A program made the position numbers and the translations under genes. This document shows, in pieces, positions 7,136-55,636 of a DNA stretch of 64,000 nucleotides. Every line of letters begins with the position of its first letter. Position 1 is the stretch's first letter. This DNA is from Dehalococcoidia bacterium. Its GTDB lineage: Bacteria; Chloroflexota; Dehalococcoidia; UBA2979. Under the pieces are notes generated by a model, which was not told the origin of the DNA, made no database searches, and saw only the letters and a program-made list of their open reading frames with translations. Where the stretch lies: assembly GCA_050248355.1 (NCBI GenBank), contig JBFWSN010000005.1:37476-101475 (forward strand). Reading direction: 5' to 3'.

Positions 7136-8017
7136 CTAAGAGACGGGCGTCTTCACCTCCCAGAACGGAAGGAGCTCCATGCCCTGACCTCGGAACGCGG
7201 TGCCGATGATGGTCATCAGGACGTACACCGCGATGAACCCGGAGAACTGGAGGATCATGTGGTCGCGCCTGGTCCGCGCAAGACCGACTTTCCAGGCGAC
7301 AGCGGACAGGATCAAAGGCAGACCGACCATCAACGAGACCGGAATGATCTGCTGCACGATCAACGCGGGAATGTTGACATCCAGGTCGATCGCGGGCAGC
7401 CCGAGGAGGTCCGTGCGAAGCACCTTCTCGCCGATCGGGACGGTACGCCAGCTCTCGGGCCAGGCGATTTCCTTGTCGAGTGCCGTGGCACTGCGGAGCC
7501 AGTTGAGCTTCGCAGGCCAGTCCGCCTCGGTGTTCCCGGTGAGCTTGGCCCAGAGGACGACGTGCTTGCCGCCGTCCCAGAAGATCAGGAGCAGCGTGCC
7601 GACGGTGCCGACGACAGCACCGACGACCGTGTTGGCGATGGCCCGCGGAGTGCCGAACCACTCGCCCTGCCCCTCGTTCGAGCGGTCGAAGTAGGGGATC
7701 GCGCCGAGGGCGACCAGGGCGACCGTGGGGACGATGACTCCGGCGAGGGCCGGGTGCATGTGGAGCAGCAGCTCCTGAAGGTTCAGGAAGTACCAAGGCG
7801 CCTTCGCGGGGTTCGGGGTGACCGTCGGGTTCGCGCGGTCGAGCAGGGGCGCGTTAATCGCGACGGACAGCGCGAAGATCGTGACCGTGAAGAGGACGGC
7901 GGCGATGAACTCGATGAATACGAGGTCGGGCCAGACGAGGAGTTCCTCGTCCCGCTGCCGCTTCGCGCGGCCGCGTACGGCCTGGGAGGCAGCCTGCTCC
8001 TGAGTCGCGGAGACCAT
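7136..8017 (-). CDS. cytochrome bc complex subunit IV (cytochrome b C-terminal-domain protein, PetD-like)
   Basis: 293 aa. The PetD/cyt b C-terminal-like core (PWYFLNLQELL..) sits immediately downstream of the split cytochrome b6 gene. Confidence 0.85.
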   Translation of the reverse strand: MVSATQEQAASQAVRGRAKRQRDEELLVWPDLVFIEFIAAVLFTVTIFALSVAINAPLLDRANPTVTPNPAKAPWYFLNLQELLLHMHPALAGVIVPTVALVALGAIPYFDRSNEGQGEWFGTPRAIANTVVGAVVGTVGTLLLIFWDGGKHVVLWAKLTGNTEADWPAKLNWLRSATALDKEIAWPESWRTVPIGEKVLRTDLLGLPAIDLDVNIPALIVQQIIPVSLMVGLPLILSAVAWKVGLARTRRDHMILQFSGFIAVYVLMTIIGTAFRGQGMELLPFWEVKTPVS

Positions 8018-46368: not shown

Positions 46369-46494
46369 AGAGGTCGTGGCAGGGGCGTCGCGGCAGCGAC
46401 CGTTCCGCCATGCTCGCGACTTTCCCCGTCGCGATGAGCATGGGCGCTGGTGCGATGCGGCGACCCGGTATGTGAGACGGTTGAGCGAGGACGC

Positions 46495-48432
46495 ATGACG
46501 ACGACCGCACGCAGGGCGGATGGCACGAACGCGCAGAACGGCGAGTACACCGCGGCCAATATCCAGGTGCTGGAAGGCCTCGAGGCCGTCCGCCGACGTC
46601 CGGGCATGTACATCGGTTCGACGGATCAACGCGGCCTGCACCACCTGATCTACGAGATCGTCGACAACGCCGTCGACGAGGCGATGGCCGGCTTCTGCGA
46701 CCGCGTCGAGGTCATCATTCAGCCCGACGGCAGCGTGAGCATCGAGGACAACGGGCGCGGCATCCCGGTCGACCGGCACGAGAAGACCGGTCTCTCCGCC
46801 CTCGAGACGGTGCTGACCGTCCTGCACGCCGGCGGGAAGTTCGGCGGCGGCGGGTACAAGGTATCCGGCGGTCTGCACGGCGTCGGCGCCTCCGTGGTGA
46901 ACGCGCTCTCCGAGGACCTCACGGCCGAAGTCGCGAAGGACGGCGCCCTCTATCGCCAGTCGTACCGTCGAGGGGCGCCTACGGGTGACATCGAGAAGGT
47001 GCGCGGCCAGAAGCCGGAGCACAACGGCACGAAGATCTCCTTCAAGCCGGACTCCGAAATCTTCGAGACGCTTGACTACGACTTCGCAACGCTCGCGGCG
47101 CGCTTTCGCGAAATGGCGTACCTGACCAAGGGCTTGTGGATCCAGTTCATCGACCTGCGCGGCGATGGGCAGGAGCAGAACTTCTACTTCGACTCGGGCA
47201 TCGAGGCGTATGTCCGGCACGTGAACCGAGGCCGCAACGCGCTGCACGCGGACCCGATCGTGATCCAGGGCGAGCGCGACAACATCTCGATCGAGGTCGC
47301 GCTGCAGTACAACGCCTCATTCAGCGAGTCGGTGCACTCCTTCGCGAACTGCATCAACACCATCGACGGCGGGAGCCACATGACGGGCTTCCGCTCCGCG
47401 CTCACGCGCGCGCTGAACGACTACGCGCGGCGCGCGAAGCTCCTCAAGGACGACGACGCGAACCTCTCCGGCGACGATGTGCGCGAAGGGCTGTCCGCGG
47501 TCATCAGCGTGAAGCTCCCGGAGCCGCAGTTCGAGGGCCAGACGAAGACCCGCCTCGGCAGCCCCGAGGTGAAGGGGCTCGTCGACTCCCTGGTGGCCTC
47601 GAGCTTGAACACCTACCTGGATGAGAACCCGAGCGTGGGACGTCGCATCATCGAGAAGGCGCTCACAGCCTCGCGAGCCCGCGAGGCTGCCCGCAAGGCG
47701 CGCGACCTGGTGCAGCGCAAAGGCGTCCTCGAGGGCTCTATGCTGCCGGGCAAGCTGGCGGACTGCTCCGAGTCGAACCCGGAGTACTCGGAGATCTATC
47801 TCGTTGAGGGTGAATCGGCGGGCGGCTCGGCGAAGAGCGCCCGCGACCGGCGGACGCAGGCGATCCTGCCGTTGCGAGGCAAGATCCTGAACGTGGAGAA
47901 GGCGCGCCTCGACAAGATGCTCGCGCACGAAGAGATCCGCATCCTGATCACGGCCCTCGGCACGGGCTTCGGCGACGACTTCGACATCGCGAAGCTGCGC
48001 TATGGCAAGGTCATCATCATGACCGACGCCGATGTCGACGGAGCGCACATCCGGACGTTGCTGCTGACCTTCTTCTACCGCTTCATGCCTGAACTGATCG
48101 AACATGGTCACCTCTACATCGCGCAGCCGCCGCTCTACAGCGCGCAGCAGGGCCGCAATGTGACCTGGCTGTTCAGCGACGTCGAGCGGGAAGCCTACTT
48201 CTCGGTGGAGCGCAAGAACGTGAACGTCCAGCGTTACAAGGGCCTCGGGGAGATGAACCCGGACCAGCTGTGGACGACGACGATGGACCCGACGACCCGT
48301 TCCCTGCTCCAGGTCGAGATCAACGACGCTGAGCGGGCGGATGAGCTGTTCACGAAGCTGATGGGCGACGAGGTGCCACCTCGGAAGTCGTTCATCATGA
48401 CGCACGCGCTCTCCGCGACGCTGGACGTCTAG
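46495..48432 (+). CDS. gyrB: DNA gyrase subunit B
   Basis: GHKL ATPase (EIVDNAVDEAMAG...DNGRGIP), a transducer domain, a Toprim domain (EGESAGGSAK...DADVDGAHI) and a C-terminal tail. 645 aa from the ATG at 46495 with a GAGGA SD. Confidence 0.95.
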   Translation: MTTTARRADGTNAQNGEYTAANIQVLEGLEAVRRRPGMYIGSTDQRGLHHLIYEIVDNAVDEAMAGFCDRVEVIIQPDGSVSIEDNGRGIPVDRHEKTGLSALETVLTVLHAGGKFGGGGYKVSGGLHGVGASVVNALSEDLTAEVAKDGALYRQSYRRGAPTGDIEKVRGQKPEHNGTKISFKPDSEIFETLDYDFATLAARFREMAYLTKGLWIQFIDLRGDGQEQNFYFDSGIEAYVRHVNRGRNALHADPIVIQGERDNISIEVALQYNASFSESVHSFANCINTIDGGSHMTGFRSALTRALNDYARRAKLLKDDDANLSGDDVREGLSAVISVKLPEPQFEGQTKTRLGSPEVKGLVDSLVASSLNTYLDENPSVGRRIIEKALTASRAREAARKARDLVQRKGVLEGSMLPGKLADCSESNPEYSEIYLVEGESAGGSAKSARDRRTQAILPLRGKILNVEKARLDKMLAHEEIRILITALGTGFGDDFDIAKLRYGKVIIMTDADVDGAHIRTLLLTFFYRFMPELIEHGHLYIAQPPLYSAQQGRNVTWLFSDVEREAYFSVERKNVNVQRYKGLGEMNPDQLWTTTMDPTTRSLLQVEINDAERADELFTKLMGDEVPPRKSFIMTHALSATLDV

Positions 48433-48996: not shown

Positions 48997-49695
48997 ATGA
49001 GTGAGGCGCGGCGCGGGAGCGAGTACGAGCGGTGGCTCGCGGGGCGCGATCCCCACTCCGCGGTGATCCGCTGGGTGATGAGCGCACCCGGGCAATGGGC
49101 CGTCAACAGCCCGCTGATGAAGCTGCCTGAGAACCTCGCGCTGAGGCGGGAGCAGCGCTGGCTCGATGTCGGATGCGGACGCGGGGCGCTGCTCCGCCTG
49201 GTAGACCAGCGGGTTGGGTTCGCGACGCCGCCCACGGGCGTCGACTTCTCGATGCAGGCGCTCCGCCTCGCGAGGCGTGATGCCCAGAAGCACGGTCACG
49301 AGGTGCGGCTCACAGGCGGGACGGCGACAGCGCTGCCATTTCGAGACCGGTCGTTCGACCTCATCACCAGCGGCTACCTGATGAAGCACCTAACGGAGGA
49401 CGAGCTCGACACGTTCCTCTCCGAGGTGCGCCGCGTGCTGACGGGAGGCGGGCTGGCGTTGCTATGGGAGTTCGCGCCCAGCGGGAGCGCGCGCCTCGAC
49501 GCGTGGAACCGCCGCGTGCTCGGGCCGCGCGTCCACGACCCGATGCTGCGCAGCACCTCGACGCTGCTCCAGCACGCCGAACGAGCGGGCTTCGAGTTCG
49601 CCCGCGATGCCATCCTGCGGCCATTCCTTTTCCCGCCGATCCCGCGCGCGTCGATCCTTGTCGGCCGGGCGCCCGAAGGCTGGCAGTCAGGCTAG
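48997..49695 (+). CDS. class I SAM-dependent methyltransferase
   Basis: Motif I LDVGCGRG, and a motif post I / II pattern (DLITSGYLMKHL). Confidence 0.8.
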   Translation: MSEARRGSEYERWLAGRDPHSAVIRWVMSAPGQWAVNSPLMKLPENLALRREQRWLDVGCGRGALLRLVDQRVGFATPPTGVDFSMQALRLARRDAQKHGHEVRLTGGTATALPFRDRSFDLITSGYLMKHLTEDELDTFLSEVRRVLTGGGLALLWEFAPSGSARLDAWNRRVLGPRVHDPMLRSTSTLLQHAERAGFEFARDAILRPFLFPPIPRASILVGRAPEGWQSG

Positions 49696-49696
49696 T

Positions 49697-50305
49697 TCAG
49701 CGGTACAGCCCGAGCTCGTCGATCACCGCGCGCACCCCCTCGGGCAGCAGGACCGCCGTCGAACGTCCGGTGGCTACGCGCTCCCGGAGGTCAGTCGAGG
49801 AGACCTCGAGGGGTGGCATCGGGACAATATTCACGCGGTCCACGATGTCGGGAAAGCGAGCGCGCACCCTGGAGGGGATGACGGGTACGCCGGGCAGACG
49901 CCAGACGAGCGCGAGCCGCGCCGCCGCGAGCAGCCGATCTGGCTCATGCCAGTTCGGCATGTCCGCCAGGGCGTCGTCGCCGGCGATGAACCACCAGTCG
50001 ACGTCGTCTCCCGCCTCCCGCAGGAGCTGCTCCATCGTGTCCGCCGAATACGAGGGGCCGCCACGCTCGACCTCGACGGTACAGACCTCCGCCCACAACA
50101 GCGGGTCGAGCGCGGCGCGCAGCATGCGCAGCCGGACGGCAGCGGGAGTGACGTCGCGGTCCGCCTTCCGCCAGGGGTCGCCGGCGGGCACGAAGAGCAC
50201 GCGGTCGAGTGCGAGCTCGTGCCTGGCGGCGGCGCCCACCGCGAGGTGAGCAATGTGCGGCGGGTCGAATGTACCGCCGAGGACGCCGGCCCTCACACGC
50301 CCCAT
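49697..50305 (-). CDS. nadD: nicotinate-nucleotide adenylyltransferase
   Basis: Start at the internal MGRVRAGVLGGTFDPPHIAHL ((H/T)xGH motif). ...SSTDLRERV. Confidence 0.9.
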   Translation of the reverse strand: MGRVRAGVLGGTFDPPHIAHLAVGAAARHELALDRVLFVPAGDPWRKADRDVTPAAVRLRMLRAALDPLLWAEVCTVEVERGGPSYSADTMEQLLREAGDDVDWWFIAGDDALADMPNWHEPDRLLAAARLALVWRLPGVPVIPSRVRARFPDIVDRVNIVPMPPLEVSSTDLRERVATGRSTAVLLPEGVRAVIDELGLYR

Positions 50306-51564
50306 TCCACCTCGACGTCGCCGATGCGGATACGTTCTCCCGGCCGCACCTTCAAGCGATCCAGGGCGCGGCCGACACCCAGCTTGCGTAGACGGTCGAA
50401 CAGCTCCTGGCGGGCCTCGAAGTCCGCCAGATTGAGGGTGCTGGCAAGCCACTCCGGGGTGTTGCCGGTGACGACCGCCGTGCCGTCCTCGGCGCGCGCT
50501 GCCTCGAAGCGCTGACGGCGAGGCTCCGGCTGGAGCACGGGAAGTGGTGGTGCCTCCGCTTCGTGCGCGCGTAGGTCCTGGAGCAGCCGCCAGGCGCGCT
50601 GAGCGAGCTCCTGGGTGCCTTCTCGGGTAGCCGCGGAAATGGGCAGCCAGGCCGCTCCCTCTGCCTCGAGAGCGTCTCCCAGGGCGGCCGCGCGCTCCCG
50701 CGCCTCCGCGTCGTCGATCTTGTTGAGCGCGACCACTTGAGGTTTCGCCGCGAGACCGTGCCCGAAGGCCGACAACTCCGCGTCGATGAGATCGCGGTCG
50801 GCCGCGGGATCCTCACGCGTCATGTCGAGGACGTGCACCAGCACCCGCGTGCGCTCAATGTGGCGCAGAAACTCGTGGCCGAGGCCGACGCCCTGGCTGG
50901 CGCCCTCAATGAGGCCGGGCATGTCGGCGGCCACGAAGGTGTCGTAGCCCACCTCGACCACGCCCAGCTCGGGTTCGAGGGTTGTGAACGGGTAAGGAGC
51001 GACCTTTGGCGTGGCCGCCGACCAGGCGCGCAGGAGCGTGGACTTGCCGGCGTTAGGCAGCCCGACGAGCCCGACATCCGCGAGCAGCTTCAGCTCAAGG
51101 CGGAGCGGGCGCCGGTCCCCCTCGCTGCCCCATTGCGCGAAGCGGGGCGTCTTTCGGGTGGGGGTGGCGAAGCGCTTGTTTCCCCAGCCCCCCCGGCCGC
51201 CGCGAGCGACCACGACGCGCTTACCGTCGACATCGAGGTCGGCGATGGCCTCTGCGCCCTCGGCGTCCTCATCTCCGGTCCAGACGACCGTTCCCACCGG
51301 CAGGCGAAGCTCGAGTGCGCGGGCCGAAGCCCCGCGACGCTGGTTCGGACCGCCGCGACCACCATCGTCAGCCTTGAACGTCTGCCCTTCGCGAATGTGA
51401 CGAAGGGTCGAGTAAGACCGGTCGGCGATGAACACCACGTCGCCGCCCCGGCCTCCGTCGCCACCGTCCGGGCCGCCGCGCGGCACGAACTTCTCGCGAT
51501 GGAAGGACACGGCGCCGTCACCTCCTCGACCGGCCGCGACCTCGATGGATGCCTGGTCGATCAT
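50293..51564 (-). CDS. obg: GTPase Obg/CgtA
   Basis: Gly-rich Obg fold (GGDGGRGGDV), a G domain (GLPNAGKST, DMPGLIEGA, NKID) and a C-terminal OCT-like domain. Confidence 0.95.
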   Translation of the reverse strand: MIDQASIEVAAGRGGDGAVSFHREKFVPRGGPDGGDGGRGGDVVFIADRSYSTLRHIREGQTFKADDGGRGGPNQRRGASARALELRLPVGTVVWTGDEDAEGAEAIADLDVDGKRVVVARGGRGGWGNKRFATPTRKTPRFAQWGSEGDRRPLRLELKLLADVGLVGLPNAGKSTLLRAWSAATPKVAPYPFTTLEPELGVVEVGYDTFVAADMPGLIEGASQGVGLGHEFLRHIERTRVLVHVLDMTREDPAADRDLIDAELSAFGHGLAAKPQVVALNKIDDAEARERAAALGDALEAEGAAWLPISAATREGTQELAQRAWRLLQDLRAHEAEAPPLPVLQPEPRRQRFEAARAEDGTAVVTGNTPEWLASTLNLADFEARQELFDRLRKLGVGRALDRLKVRPGERIRIGDVEVEWGV

Positions 51565-51905
51565 CGGCCGGGCGCTCTTGTGGATGGATGTACAGGTGCC
51601 TTGAGATTCATGGGTCGATCCATCGTAGGAGACAAGTCGTCGTAGTAGGGGTGTTGGTCGTGTGGATGCAGCTACGACGCAGATTCGGTGTCAGATGTGG
51701 AATCCGCTGTCTGCGCCGTCTGTGTATGTGGACAGTTGCACCGGAGTCTTCGCCAGGCGCTCGAGTGCGTTTCTCCATGTTTCCGCGACAGGAGGTTCTC
51801 CTCAAGCCAGCACAGCTACATCCGCTGGATATCGACGCAGATGTCAACAGTAAAGAGGCATACGAGTATGCAATTGATCGCGCCGACGGGATGTGGGTAA
51901 GGGGT
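51565..51905. other. candidate oriC segment: cluster of DnaA-box-like 9-mers plus an AT-rich stretch, downstream of dnaA
   Basis: TGTGGATGG (51579), TGTGGATGC (51661), TGTGGAATC (51707), TGTGGACAG (51729), TGTGGGTAA (51891) against the TGTGGATAA consensus. AT-rich element cagatgtcaacagtaaagaggcatacgagtatgcaattgat at 51836-51880. Confidence 0.45.
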
Positions 51906-53273
51906 TTAAGCGACCTGGCGAGCGCGGTCGATCAGCTCACGCAGGCTGCCGATGTCTCGCTTCGTCTCGGGGTCGACGACGAGGGAGCGCTCCATCTTCC
52001 GCCAGCCGTGGTGAACCGTGGAGTGGTCGCGGCCCCCGAGCGCGGCGCCGATCTCGACGAGTGAGCGCTGGGCCAGCTCGCGCATGAGGTACATCGAGAT
52101 CTGGCGAGGGTAGGCGACGCGCTTTTCGCGGCTCTTTGAGAGCAGCGCGTCGCGGTCAATCCCGAAGTATCGGCAGACGACGTCCATGATGAGCTCGGGA
52201 GACGGCGGGAGACGTGGCTCGTCGGGCTGTAGCGATGCCAGCGCCGACTGTACGAGCTCCGTCGTCAGCGGTTCGCCCGTGAGCCGCGAGTACGCGAGGA
52301 CACGCGTGAGCGAGCCCTCCAGCTCGCGGATGTTGTTCGTGTACCGGGCGGCAATGAGCTGGAAGACCTCATCCGGCACGCGGGCGCGCTGGTCGCGTGC
52401 CTTTGCCTGCAGGATGGCGACTCGCGTCTCCATGTCGGGCGCCTGGATGTCGGCGATCATGCCCCACTCGAACCGCGTGCGCAGGCGCTCCTCGATCTGC
52501 GGGATGAGCGCCGGGCTCTTGTCCGAGGTGATGACGATCTGCTTCGCGTCCTCGTAGAGCTCGTTGAAGGTGTGGAAGAACTCCTGCTGAGTCTGCTCCT
52601 TGCCGGCGATGAACTGGATGTCATCGATCAGCAGCACGTCGGCGGAGCGGTAGCGCGCGCGGAATTCCTCCTGCTTGCGTTGCTGGATGGCGGTGATGAG
52701 CTGGTTGGTGAACTGCTCGGCCGAGAGGTACACGACGCGCAGCCCCTCCTCCATCGTGCGATGGCCGATCGCCTGGAGCAGGTGCGTCTTGCCCAGACCG
52801 GCCGCGCCATAGAGGAACAGCGGGTTGTAGAGCCGTCCCGGCTCGGCGGCCACGCCCTCGGCGGCGGCGAACGCGAGACGGTTGGCTGGACCGACGATGA
52901 AGTGGTCGAACGTGTAGCGCTCACGCAGGCGGGGACGTGGAAAGAGTGGTCCGGGCGCGACATGTTCCGCGAACCCCTGAAGCGCCGGCGTCGGCTCCTC
53001 AGCCCGTGCGCGGAGGGTCTCGAAGCGGATGTCGACAGGCTGCGCCGCAAGCTCGGTGAGGGTCCGGACGATCAGGGGGCGCAGGCGCTTCTGGATCCAC
53101 TCCGTGACGAACTCGGACCGTGTACCGACCACGAGCGCGCCGTTCTCGAAGCGCAGGCCCTCGGTCCCCTCGAGCCACGTGTCAAAGTTCGCCCGTGACA
53201 CATGCTGCGCGAGGTGACGGAGGGCCTGTTGCCAGAGGTCGACGGGGTCGCCAAGGGCCGCGTCACTGCGCAC
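51906..53273 (-). CDS. dnaA: chromosomal replication initiator protein DnaA
   Basis: AAA+ Walker [17 protein letters not shown], sensor motifs, and a C-terminal DnaA box-binding HTH ([17 protein letters not shown]). The track ORF begins with TTG at 53333. GTG at about 53273 is preferred because it is preceded by GGGAG and the conserved DLWQQAL follows. Confidence 0.9.
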
Positions 53274-53319
53274 GAGGGCTCCCACTACCGTGGCGGAGGT
53301 ACGCGCGATGCCGTCCCGC

Positions 53320-53645
53320 GACCGCAGGCACAATCATCCACAAACGTTTGTAACGTGTGGATATCGGAGCTATCGCTAGGTGGACAGACGCCTATCCCCG
53401 CAAGGGGTCGCTTGGTTGGTTGTTAATGCACTATCAGGTCAGATCACCGGCTCATGCCGCATCGAGCTGGCGTTTTCGGACCGGGGCGGACGATAGCATT
53501 GCCCGAGAATGCCGATCAAGCAGCTTATGTGTAGTCCAGATGAATTTCCTTGGAATACCAAGGGAAGCGGTCTCTCGGCGCCGCTGTGTATAATCGCCGG
53601 CACCCCGGTTTCGAGGGCACGCGCTCCCAACTCGGACGCTGGACG
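53320..53645. other. dnaA upstream region with DnaA-box-like motifs and AT-rich/palindromic elements (second part of the candidate origin)
   Basis: TCATCCACA (53327) and TGTGGATAT (53355) are each 1 mismatch from the consensus. TGGACAGAC, palindrome ttccttggaataccaaggga, and gtgTATAATcg -10 boxes before coaX. Confidence 0.4.
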
Positions 53646-54434
53646 ACCATGACGACGCCTTCGCTCCTGCTCGCGATCGACATCGGCAACACGAGCATCG
53701 CCATTGGCCTCTACGACCGTGAGAAGCTCGCCGCCACGTTTCGCATCGCCACCGATCAAGAGAACCTCCCGGACGAGTATGCCATGCTCGTCCTCTCGCT
53801 TCTGCGTACCCGGGACATCGACCCGACGCACGTCGGATCCGCGATCATCTCCTCGACGGTGCCGCCGCTGCTCCTGACGTTTGGCGAGGTCTGCCGGAAC
53901 TACTTCCACGTCGAGCCCCTGACCGTCGGGACGGGCGTCCGGACGGGCGTCCGGGTCCGCTACGATAATCCGCGCGAGGTGGGCGCGGACCGCATTCTGC
54001 ACGCGGTGGCCGCGCTCGCGAAGTACGACCCTCCGCTGATCATCGTCGACCTCGGTACGGCGCTCGTCTTCGACGCGGTGTCCCGCGAGGGCGACTACCT
54101 CGGCGGCGCGATCTCACCCGGCATCAACATCGCCGCGCAGGCGCTCTTCAGCCGGGCCGCGATGCTTCGGCGCGTCAGCATCGAACGCCCCTCGACGGGG
54201 TCGGTGATCGGCAAGAACACCGTGCACGCGATCCAGTCCGGCCTGTTCTTTGGCTACGCCGACATGATCCACGGCATGGTGCGTCGGTTCAAAGCGGAGA
54301 TCGGCGAGGACGCCACCGTGATCGCGACGGGCGGATACGCCCCGATCCTGATCGACGAAATGGACTGCATCGACCACGTGGAGCCCGACCTCAACCTCGA
54401 GGGCCTGCGCCTGGTGCACGAGGCGAACCGGTGA
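53646..54434 (+). CDS. coaX: type III pantothenate kinase
   Basis: Start at the internal MTTPSLLLAIDIGNTSIAIGLYD. ASKHA fold motifs (DLGTALVFD, ATGGYA). Confidence 0.9.
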   Translation, partial: TMTTPSLLLAIDIGNTSIAIGLYDREKLAATFRIATDQENLPDEYAMLVLSLLRTRDIDPTHVGSAIISSTVPPLLLTFGEVCRNYFHVEPLTVGTGVRTGVRVRYDNPREVGADRILHAVAALAKYDPPLIIVDLGTALVFDAVSREGDYLGGAISPGINIAAQALFSRAAMLRRVSIERPSTGSVIGKNTVHAIQSGLFFGYADMIHGMVRRFKAEIGEDATVIATGGYAPILIDEMDCIDHVEPDLNLEGLRLVHEANR

Positions 54435-55636
54435 GCGGTCCGCTCGCCGGACGCCGCGTCGTGCTCGGCGTGTCGGGGTCGATCGCCTCTTACAAGGCGG
54501 CGGAGCTGTGCAGCCGCCTCGTGCAGGAGGGAGCGCACGTCGAGGTCGTGATGACGTCCGGGGCCACCGAGTTCATCGCTCCGCTCTCGTTTCGCGCTCT
54601 CACCGGCCGGCGGCCGTACATCGACCTGTACCGCGACGGCAACGAGGGGGAGAGCCACGTCGAGCTGGCGCGGCGCGCGGACCTGATGCTCATCGCACCG
54701 GCATCGGCCTCGACGCTGGCGCGGCTCACGCACGGGCTGGCCGAAGACTTCGTCTCGCTGACTGCGATCGCGACGCAGGCGCCGGTGCTGGTCGCCCCGG
54801 CCATGGACAGTCAGATGTGGGAGCACCCGGCGGTGCAGGCAAACCGGGCGACGCTCGAGGAACGCGGCGTGCAATTCCTCGGACCGGTTTCCGGGCGGCT
54901 GGCGTCGGGCCGGAGCGGCTCGGGCCGGCTGATGGAGCCCGCTGAGATGGTCGAGCATGTGAAGGCCCGCCTCGGGCGCGAGCATGGCGACCTCGCCGGC
55001 CGGACGGTCGTCGTCTCCGCGGGCGGCACGCGCGAGGCGATCGACCCGGTGCGCTACGTGGGCAACCGCTCCAGCGGCAAGATGGGGTATGCCCTCGCGG
55101 AGGCCGCGCGCGACCGCGGCGCCTCGGTGGTGCTGGTGACATCCGCGGGGCTGCCGAAGCCCGCGGCCATCGAGGTGGTGTCCGTGGAGTCGGCGGCGGA
55201 GATGCTGGACGCCGTGCAGACGGCGTGTAAGCGCGCTGACGCACTGATCATGGCTGCGGCCGTGGCGGACTACCGCCCGGCGGAAGCCGCCGACCAGAAG
55301 CTCAAGAAGGTGGCCGGGCAGTCCGGCCGCACCATCGAGCTGGTCGAGACGACGGACATCATCGCCTCGGTGCAGGGCGAGCGCCTCGTGAAGGTTGCCT
55401 TCGCGGCCGAGACGCAGGATCTCCTGGAGAATGCACAGAAGAAGCTCGCCTCGAAGGGGGCCCGGTTCGTCGTCGCCAACGACGTTACGGCCGCTGACGC
55501 CGGGTTCGCCGTGGACACGAACCGCGTGACCATCCTCGACGACCAGGGCGGACGCGAAGCACTACCCCTGATGATGAAGTACGACGTCGCATGGCGCGTC
55601 CTGGACCGCGTGGTGGCCCTGCTGCCGGTGCGGTAG
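54431..55636 (+). CDS. coaBC: bifunctional phosphopantothenoylcysteine decarboxylase / phosphopantothenate-cysteine ligase
   Basis: N-terminal flavoprotein domain (VLGVSGSIASYKAAEL) and C-terminal CoaB domain (VVVSAGGTREAIDPVRYVGNRSSGKMG). Overlaps the coaX stop. Confidence 0.95.
   Translation: MSGPLAGRRVVLGVSGSIASYKAAELCSRLVQEGAHVEVVMTSGATEFIAPLSFRALTGRRPYIDLYRDGNEGESHVELARRADLMLIAPASASTLARLTHGLAEDFVSLTAIATQAPVLVAPAMDSQMWEHPAVQANRATLEERGVQFLGPVSGRLASGRSGSGRLMEPAEMVEHVKARLGREHGDLAGRTVVVSAGGTREAIDPVRYVGNRSSGKMGYALAEAARDRGASVVLVTSAGLPKPAAIEVVSVESAAEMLDAVQTACKRADALIMAAAVADYRPAEAADQKLKKVAGQSGRTIELVETTDIIASVQGERLVKVAFAAETQDLLENAQKKLASKGARFVVANDVTAADAGFAVDTNRVTILDDQGGREALPLMMKYDVAWRVLDRVVALLPVR

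Follow-up and report, generated by a model that had tools for sequence, protein, structure and literature searches.

A predicted chromosomal origin of the basal-unwinding type between dnaA and obg in a Dehalococcoidia genome

The element treated here is a predicted chromosomal origin (oriC) between dnaA and obg in a 64-kb stretch of DNA from a Dehalococcoidia bacterium (the window), and its closest described counterpart is the basal unwinding system (BUS) of Bacillus subtilis. The BUS is reportedly located in the incC region of B. subtilis oriC and made of DnaA-box#6 and DnaA-box#7, DnaA-trios and an AT-rich DNA unwinding element (DUE), a description ascribed to Richardson in 2016. It was treated in two further studies (Pelliciari 2021, PMC8287927; Pelliciari 2023, PMC10721633), and its sequence reads 3'-AATAGGTGT TTAGGTGT CCGG GATGATAAT...-5', with the trios GAT GAT AAT GAA GAT GAT, the first of which is 12 nt away from the upstream box (Pelliciari et al.). 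The module found in the window is built alike. It is located downstream of dnaA on the same strand. Its two boxes stand in tandem and in one orientation, a short GC spacer separates them from five to six repeats of 3 nt that start with 3'-GAT-5', and trio 1 again lies 12 nt from the upstream box. These are followed by a stretch of lower GC content and then by the next gene, and the DnaA of the window carries the equivalents of the B. subtilis residues Asn187, Ile190 and Arg264. In contrast to B. subtilis, the next gene is obg and not dnaN, about half of the trios have a central C (3'-GCT-5', 3'-ACT-5'), the predicted unwinding stretch is AT-rich only in relative terms, and a further co-oriented box closes that stretch in about 15 loci.

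Within the phylum of the window, oriC and BUS predictions have been listed for the cultured Chloroflexi Dehalococcoides mccartyi 195 and CBDB1, Roseiflexus, Anaerolinea and Thermomicrobium; for the DoriC oriC regions of D. mccartyi the predicted BUS lies 1.6-1.9 kb into the records (DoriC; Pelliciari 2021 Table S1, PMC8287927). These predictions are weak, with only one, degenerate box ahead of A-rich 'trios', whereas the window holds a clear tandem-box, GAT-type BUS which is conserved over many uncultured lineages. The D. mccartyi position is presumably just downstream of dnaA. A dnaA-adjacent origin without dnaN is not new for Chloroflexi. Origins not flanked by dnaN are also found in Caulobacter (hemE/RP001), Helicobacter (oriC1-dnaA-oriC2) and cyanobacteria. 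Like these, the candidate origin of the window is defined by boxes and a predicted unwinding element instead of a dnaA-dnaN pair; unlike them, it has a tight linkage to obg and remains beside dnaA in the majority of lineages.

The tandem-box and trio module upstream of obg

The gap between dnaA and obg (51565-51905, 341 bp) was interpreted as a chromosomal oriC on the BUS plan, with a probability of about 0.74. The interpretation is carried by a unique and correctly oriented BUS-like module, conserved in about 50 related genomes, which reads GCATCCACA CGACCAACA CCC CTA CTA CGA CGA CTT GTC on the minus strand (51669-51631). It combines two tandem boxes, a 3-nt GC spacer and trinucleotide repeats. 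An earlier annotation made from the letters of the window only (the sequence-only reading) had proposed a candidate chromosomal origin around dnaA but had overlooked this module, which now supports the dnaA-obg gap as an oriC-type region. That the element is an oriC-type BUS element appears very likely. That it acts as a bidirectional origin in the window's own genome is rated as probable, and less firmly so because no local switch of GC skew was seen and the strand bias on the obg side is reversed.

The conservation of the module was followed in 80 dnaA loci from species-representative genomes, about 56 of them from Dehalococcoidia with DnaA identities of 54-98%. In what follows, WIN designates the window's own locus, and L001, L045 and similar handles the fetched comparison loci. 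The grammar box(9)-box(9)-CCN-[C(T/G)A]x5 was observed in 45-48 of 48 Dehalococcoidia loci, and the register of the trios relative to box 2 is fixed in all loci. According to the published rule, the trio array lies at most 16 bp from a DnaA box, with a peak at 10-13 nt from the better box (PMC8287927). The window obeys this rule with 3 nt between box 2 and trio 1 and 12 nt between box 1 and trio 1. The textbook form is displayed by low-GC relatives, where TTATCAACA AAATCAACA CCC CTACTACTACTAC precedes about 40 bp at 10-12% GC. The slot of box 2 is occupied by good boxes in relatives (CTGTCCACA in L004 and L014, CGATCCACA in L027). In the alignment of WIN with its relatives L045 and L001, the module core CAACACCCCTACTACGACGACTT is identical while the remainder of the gap diverges. 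From the end of the module to the obg start codon, the Dehalococcoidia loci have 40-120 nt, mostly about 70 nt.

A 37-nt position-weight matrix of the module was then applied to both strands of 2.65 Mb of fetched loci with a cut-off of 25 bits. It gave a single match in the window at 44 bits, the runner-up scoring 15 bits, and exactly one match above the cut-off per Dehalococcoidia locus, always upstream of obg and directed at obg. It also matched the dnaA-dnaN gap in three Patescibacteria loci, from which it follows that the matrix recognises bona fide canonical origins. Uniqueness and linkage to obg are thus directly observed features of the module, which provides a precise oriC proposal (boxes, trios and unwinding stretch) for a large group of uncultured Dehalococcoidia. 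The origin of this group would be linked to obg, and not to dnaN or even to dnaA.

The module is embedded in a larger set of DnaA boxes. Five TGTGGNNNN sites occur on the plus strand of the gap (51579, 51661, 51696, 51727 and 51892), four of which have at most two mismatches to TTATCCACA. The good boxes at 51892, 51727, 51696 and 51661 and the weak one at 51652 are all co-oriented towards the trios. With five sites of at most two mismatches per 341 bp, a significant non-coding cluster of the type expected at an oriC is present. Over the whole window, TTATCCACA has six matches with one mismatch or none, and four of them fall in the 717 bp flanking dnaA (binomial p = 2e-7). In 300 first-order Markov simulations of the window, five matches (at most two mismatches) per 341 bp never arose, and four matches on the same strand arose only once. 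The cluster is far beyond chance, and all the boxes that had been noted on both sides of dnaA were recovered. The same gap holds 3-10 box-like sites in nearly all Dehalococcoidia loci, against 0.3-0.7 per kb elsewhere. Three box-like matches at 35.0-35.3 kb were scattered and were therefore not retained as a second cluster.

Two further motifs were noticed in the gap. GANTC is enriched 2.5-fold and GAWTC 4.7-fold relative to the flanks. The enrichment of GANTC and of GATC (1.2-fold) was rejected as a signal, since the lower GC content of the gap may explain most of it. A CAGATTC/GAATCTG motif recurs immediately upstream of box 1 in the window gap and in orthologous gaps.

Beyond the trios the GC content decreases. 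At +10 to +70 it lies about 0.07 to 0.26 below the GC of the locus, being lowest at +20 to +60. Across 45 loci the trio-to-obg stretch has a mean GC of 0.53 vs 0.67, which is about 0.13 under the locus mean, and 0.10-0.12 in low-GC relatives. A role of positions 51588-51630 in unwinding is predicted from the BUS model. In about 12 loci the distal box that closes this stretch lies at a fixed 49-51 nt past the fifth trio; in three more the distance is 40-48 nt. At its place, some relatives have an inverted box pair. Two AT-rich patches were distinguished in the gap of the window, one beside the trios (about 51588-51640) and the AT-richest one adjoining the dnaA stop (about 51840-51885). The latter is probably the DUE-like element of the sequence-only reading. 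The patch as such is real; its assignment is not supported, however, as it lies roughly 200 bp from the trios, while the logic of the BUS sites unwinding at the trios and about 45 bp towards obg. The corresponding patch of L045 forms an 11-bp hairpin, and that of the window does not.

From this architecture we infer filament formation, unwinding and helicase loading by the following route. DnaA would bind the co-oriented box array that ends in the tandem pair (51652-51669). From this anchor a DnaA-ATP filament would grow onto one strand over the trios (51631-51648), where it would capture the 3'-G(A/C)-5' dinucleotide of each trio, the canonical 3'-GAT-5' being mixed with the C-centred 3'-GCT-5' in the window. 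The filament would then open the stretch of about 45 bp of lower GC up to the distal box before obg, where the helicase would be loaded.

Trio composition and DnaA residues

The first five trios of 45 modules (225 trios) were composed of GAT (99), GCT (79), ACT (22), GGT (7) and few others, and about 95% of them are A- or C-centred. The published search rule for a BUS asks for at least three consecutive 3'-NAN-5' trios (PMC8287927), a pattern present in only 12 of the 45 orthologous modules, WIN not being one of them. When C is accepted beside A at the central position, the window displays six consecutive trios, and at least three are found in 38 and at least five in 34 of the 45 loci. An exception to the A/C pattern is the G-centred 3'-GGT-5' found as trio 2 in the sub-clade of L037 and L039-L044.

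It was reported that cytosine, but not G or T, substitutes for the central adenine both in vitro and in vivo (Pelliciari et al. 2023, PMC10721633). Both bases present an exocyclic amine to Asn187, and a wider sequence range for DnaA homologues was raised as a possibility (PMC10721633). The A/C pattern corresponds to the prediction of this amine-recognition model for a high-GC lineage, and the variation of the central base, limited to A and C, is natural variation as the cryo-EM and biochemical model (Asn187 and the exocyclic amine) predicts. The 3'-GCT-5' and 3'-ACT-5' repeats are reasonably likely to be natural C-centred DnaA-trios, in which case they would give the amine-recognition model of trio binding its first comparative support. 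Since the published genome-wide search requires a central A, C-centred modules are invisible to it, and high-GC origins may have been under-called.

The cognate initiator was found to be intact at the relevant positions. An alignment to 8BTG showed that the DnaA of the window retains the equivalents of the Asn, Ile and Arg listed above for B. subtilis, with the single-stranded DNA-binding Asn and the Ile of the initiator-specific motif (ISM) within FTNQLI, and the arginine finger within RLRTRF.

Strand asymmetry and the weighing of alternatives

The cumulative GC skew was examined in 32 relatives with 7 kb available on either side of the module, and in 25 of them its minimum lies at most 100 nt from the trios. 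Part of this precision is owed to the intrinsic composition of dnaA and obg. A rearranged clade of five genomes (L016, L029, L033, L048 and L054) suggests that composition is not the sole cause. In these genomes the segment with coaBC, coaX and dnaA is inverted with respect to obg, dnaA being followed 45 bp further on by a convergent 520-aa gene, and the box/trio gap, with the module at about 7330-7360 on the minus strand, sits between obg and coaBC, still directed at obg. Exactly at the module, the raw GC skew passes from about -0.055 to +0.035, and the 10 kb of non-syntenic genes past dnaA are skew-positive as well.

Several observations weigh against an origin at this site of the window. 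A GC-skew minimum elsewhere on the chromosome had been named as refuting the first proposal, and the outcome within the window is not a clean pass: no local switch of skew was seen, the plus strand being G-rich to either side of the locus, from -10 kb to +51 kb, and this holds for genes in either orientation and for non-coding stretches. A switch is lacking in WIN and likewise in its closest relatives L045 (98%) and L001 (90%), where the cumulative-skew extremum lies at the edge of the span, away from the module. In these three loci the skew at third codon positions (GC3 skew) of obg is -0.13, vs +0.03 in sister clades, and that of gyrB, on the other strand, is -0.09 in the window clade vs -0.27; the methyltransferase gene shows +0.03 vs -0.12. 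The obg-side orthologues are thus shifted by 0.15-0.2, in opposite directions depending on the strand, which is a signature of replication and not of coding. Taken at face value and by convention, this would mean a long history of forks travelling across the obg side in the direction of the module. In addition, box 2 of the window module is degenerate, and the 69-nt stretch from the trios to obg is only relatively AT-rich (about 58% GC, in a genome of 68% GC). The trio array has two A-centred trios followed by two C-centred ones and falls short of the three consecutive 3'-NAN-5' trios which the strict rule demands as a minimum. Finally, the constant position upstream of obg is equally expected of an obg promoter or leader element.

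Two explanations of the skew anomaly were rejected. Codon usage of highly expressed genes does not account for it, as the genes at 1-46 kb are ordinary biosynthetic and housekeeping genes and the bias is of the strand type; and no single inversion or translocation reconciles gene orientation with skew. The two disagree in the window, where the plus strand is G-rich and the minus strand carries 43 of the 49 genes at 1-51.5 kb. A switch within 7 kb is missing from five other lineages too, in the opposite sense, and the local skew is for this reason not fully reliable in the group. That a conserved module and the local skew disagree in one sub-clade offers a test case for skew as a reporter of origin use.

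The alternatives were weighed against this background. The module might be an ancestral oriC-type element which is not the (main) bidirectional origin in the sub-clade of the window; replication would then start elsewhere on the obg side or be very asymmetric, and the element would be kept for titration or for control of obg or dnaA. This is regarded as unlikely. The absence of a skew switch over 61 kb speaks for it, as does the reversal of the obg-side bias in WIN, L045 and L001 only, the sister clades switching at the module. It is opposed by the perfect retention of the module core in the three members of the clade while the flanks diverge, by an intact dnaA, and by the orientation of 43 of the 49 obg-side genes with a fork leaving the module. 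Moreover, gene orientation and skew are reconciled by no rearrangement history under either position of the origin, and the local skew is noisy, as the five lineages mentioned above illustrate. A G-rich strand that stays the same over at least 61 kb and the flipped bias could also result from asymmetric or unidirectional replication from the module, or equally from another origin with a retained BUS; only a small probability is given to this.

An origin function would be dispensed with altogether if the gap were a DnaA-controlled promoter or leader of obg, with the repeats in the obg 5' region and the boxes upstream of dnaA as an operator of dnaA. The module always lies 40-120 nt upstream of obg and is directed at it, and it moves with obg when obg is parted from dnaA. 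This explanation is nevertheless very unlikely, since the box-box-GC-trio grammar with its 12-nt spacing, 3-nt periodicity and A/C centre is that of characterised origins, dnaA-dnaN origins of another phylum are matched by the same matrix, and the skew minima coincide with the module in most relatives. No promoter-like hexamers were seen in the gap either; a scan for consensus promoters and terminators returned nothing in either gap, and an Rfam scan of both gaps (E ≤ 1) matched no family in the non-coding parts. Least probable of all is an origin of the genuinely bipartite kind known from Bacillus or Helicobacter, in which the dnaA-coaX and dnaA-obg clusters would both be required and joined by looping. 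Boxes do flank dnaA on both sides in the window genome, and the convergent pair upstream of dnaA recurs in 12 of 55 relatives, distant low-GC ones included, at 34-110 nt from the dnaA start. It is, however, absent from the other 43, it sits inside the dnaA leader, and in many lineages no box with at most two mismatches occurs within 450 bp upstream of dnaA. In the rearranged clade, coaBC-coaX (about 2.6 kb) lies between the module on one side and dnaA with its upstream region on the other. Directly after the predicted unwinding region, where a Bacillus-type bipartite origin has dnaN, obg is found. An oriC on the BUS plan, in the dnaA-obg gap, was preferred.

The gap upstream of dnaA and the gene neighbourhood

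The gap between dnaA and coaX is likely to contain divergent promoters of both genes together with a DnaA operator, as judged from the elements listed in Table 1. The promoter-like element predicted for dnaA is far from the start codon, which implies a long leader (about 210 nt, down to 53274), and the convergent box pair lies downstream of this element. The leader holds conserved blocks such as GGGGATAGGCG. Autoregulation of dnaA via DnaA boxes in its promoter or leader is known from E. coli and from B. subtilis (incA/incB). The situation in the window is similar, with near-consensus boxes between the promoter-like element and the dnaA start codon; it differs by a single convergent pair with a 13-nt spacer, patchily retained among relatives. 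Its location in the dnaA leader and its presence in only 12 of 55 relatives make autoregulation the likelier role. The pair is most likely an operator, predicted from sequence, through which DnaA would repress its own transcript. That a bipartite origin needs it as one half is improbable, and a cooperative role keeps a small probability.

The sequence-only reading had compared the arrangement with Bacillus incAB/incC, and the likeness stands for the downstream gap, which is of the oriC type, but is not supported for the upstream pair. The near-consensus boxes and AT-rich palindromes it had described upstream were only partly retained. The boxes and a palindrome, TTTCCTTGG-N4-CCAAGGGAA at 53545-53566, were found, whereas a third box overlaps the TATAAT of coaX. 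A motif around this TATAAT, GATTATAC, is conserved in 16 loci. The palindrome, just upstream of the TATAAT, is kept in the closest relatives only and may be a regulator site.

Table 1. Position of genes and sequence elements around dnaA in the window
Feature	Coordinates	Strand	Remarks
gyrB	46450-48432	+	NCBIfam equivalog level
methyltransferase gene	48997-49695	+	
nadD	49697-50452	-	NCBIfam equivalog level
obg	50293-51564	-	NCBIfam equivalog level, Pfam; gene always accompanied by the predicted origin module
distal co-oriented DnaA box CCATCCACA	51579-51587	-	14 nt before obg ATG
predicted unwinding/helicase-loading stretch	51588-51630		relatively low GC, between trios and distal box
DnaA-trio array	51631-51648	+	3'-GAT GAT GCT GCT GAA CAG-5'; minus strand CTA CTA CGA CGA CTT GTC
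GC spacer CCC, 3 nt	51649-51651	-	CCN in most of 45 loci
BUS DnaA box 2 CGACCAACA	51652-51660	-	degenerate; tandem and co-oriented with box 1
BUS DnaA box 1 GCATCCACA	51661-51669	-	upstream anchoring box; core TCCACA invariant in alignment A1
DnaA-box-like site GATTCCACA	51696-51704	-	co-oriented
DnaA-box-like site CTGTCCACA	51727-51735	-	co-oriented
AT-richest patch of the gap	51840-51885		adjoins dnaA stop; conserved TTGCATACTC motif
DnaA box TTACCCACA	51892-51900	-	1 mismatch; just past dnaA stop
dnaA	51906-53273	-	455 aa; NCBIfam equivalog level, Pfam
DnaA box TCATCCACA	53334-53342	+	
DnaA box ATATCCACA	53356-53364	-	
convergent pair TCATCCACA-N13-TGTGGATAT	53334-53364		in dnaA leader, about 60 nt upstream of dnaA GTG
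promoter-like TTGATC-N18-TATCGT for dnaA	53490-53519	-	predicted; TGC before it; conserved in 10 loci including distant ones
TATAAT of coaX	53589-53594	+	perfect; overlaps 1-mismatch box TTATACACA (53585-53593, -)
coaX	53649-54434	+	NCBIfam equivalog level
coaBC	54431-55636	+	NCBIfam equivalog level

The gene order around the predicted origin is kept among Dehalococcoidia, with coaBC-coaX transcribed one way and dnaA, a gap of 220-550 bp, obg and nadD the other way, followed beyond nadD by the methyltransferase gene and gyrB. The succession of dnaA by obg-nadD instead of dnaN-recF had been read correctly from the letters, as had the place of gyrB on the opposite strand at about 3.5 kb (its end is 3.47 kb from the dnaA stop). 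Calling the neighbourhood non-canonical is justified with respect to Bacillus only, and not within the Dehalococcoidia lineage. The absence of dnaN downstream of dnaA was also right: a DnaN profile built from outgroup loci recovered dnaN directly after dnaA in 22 outgroup loci and found none in the 64-kb window nor in 56 Dehalococcoidia loci. All the minus-strand genes counted above to the left of the locus are directed away from the module. A tRNA scan of the window gave no tRNA, and a metagenome scan with the protein at its left end gave relatives only at 66% identity or less.

The start codon of dnaA is GTG, the same as in the identical database protein P0002, and the open reading frame continues upstream to a TTG at 53333. 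Proteins from metagenome-assembled Dehalococcoidia genomes are the best matches of this DnaA, one of them at 100% identity. A sub-threshold Rfam match to AsdA, an antisense RNA of dnaA mRNA, was obtained at 52754-52811 on the plus strand (29 bits vs a gathering score of 52); as it lies inside the dnaA coding sequence, it probably reflects coding conservation. The longest frame of nadD shares 160 nt (50293-50452) with the 3' end of obg. Its family match begins at residue 52, so that the true start of nadD is probably near the obg stop.

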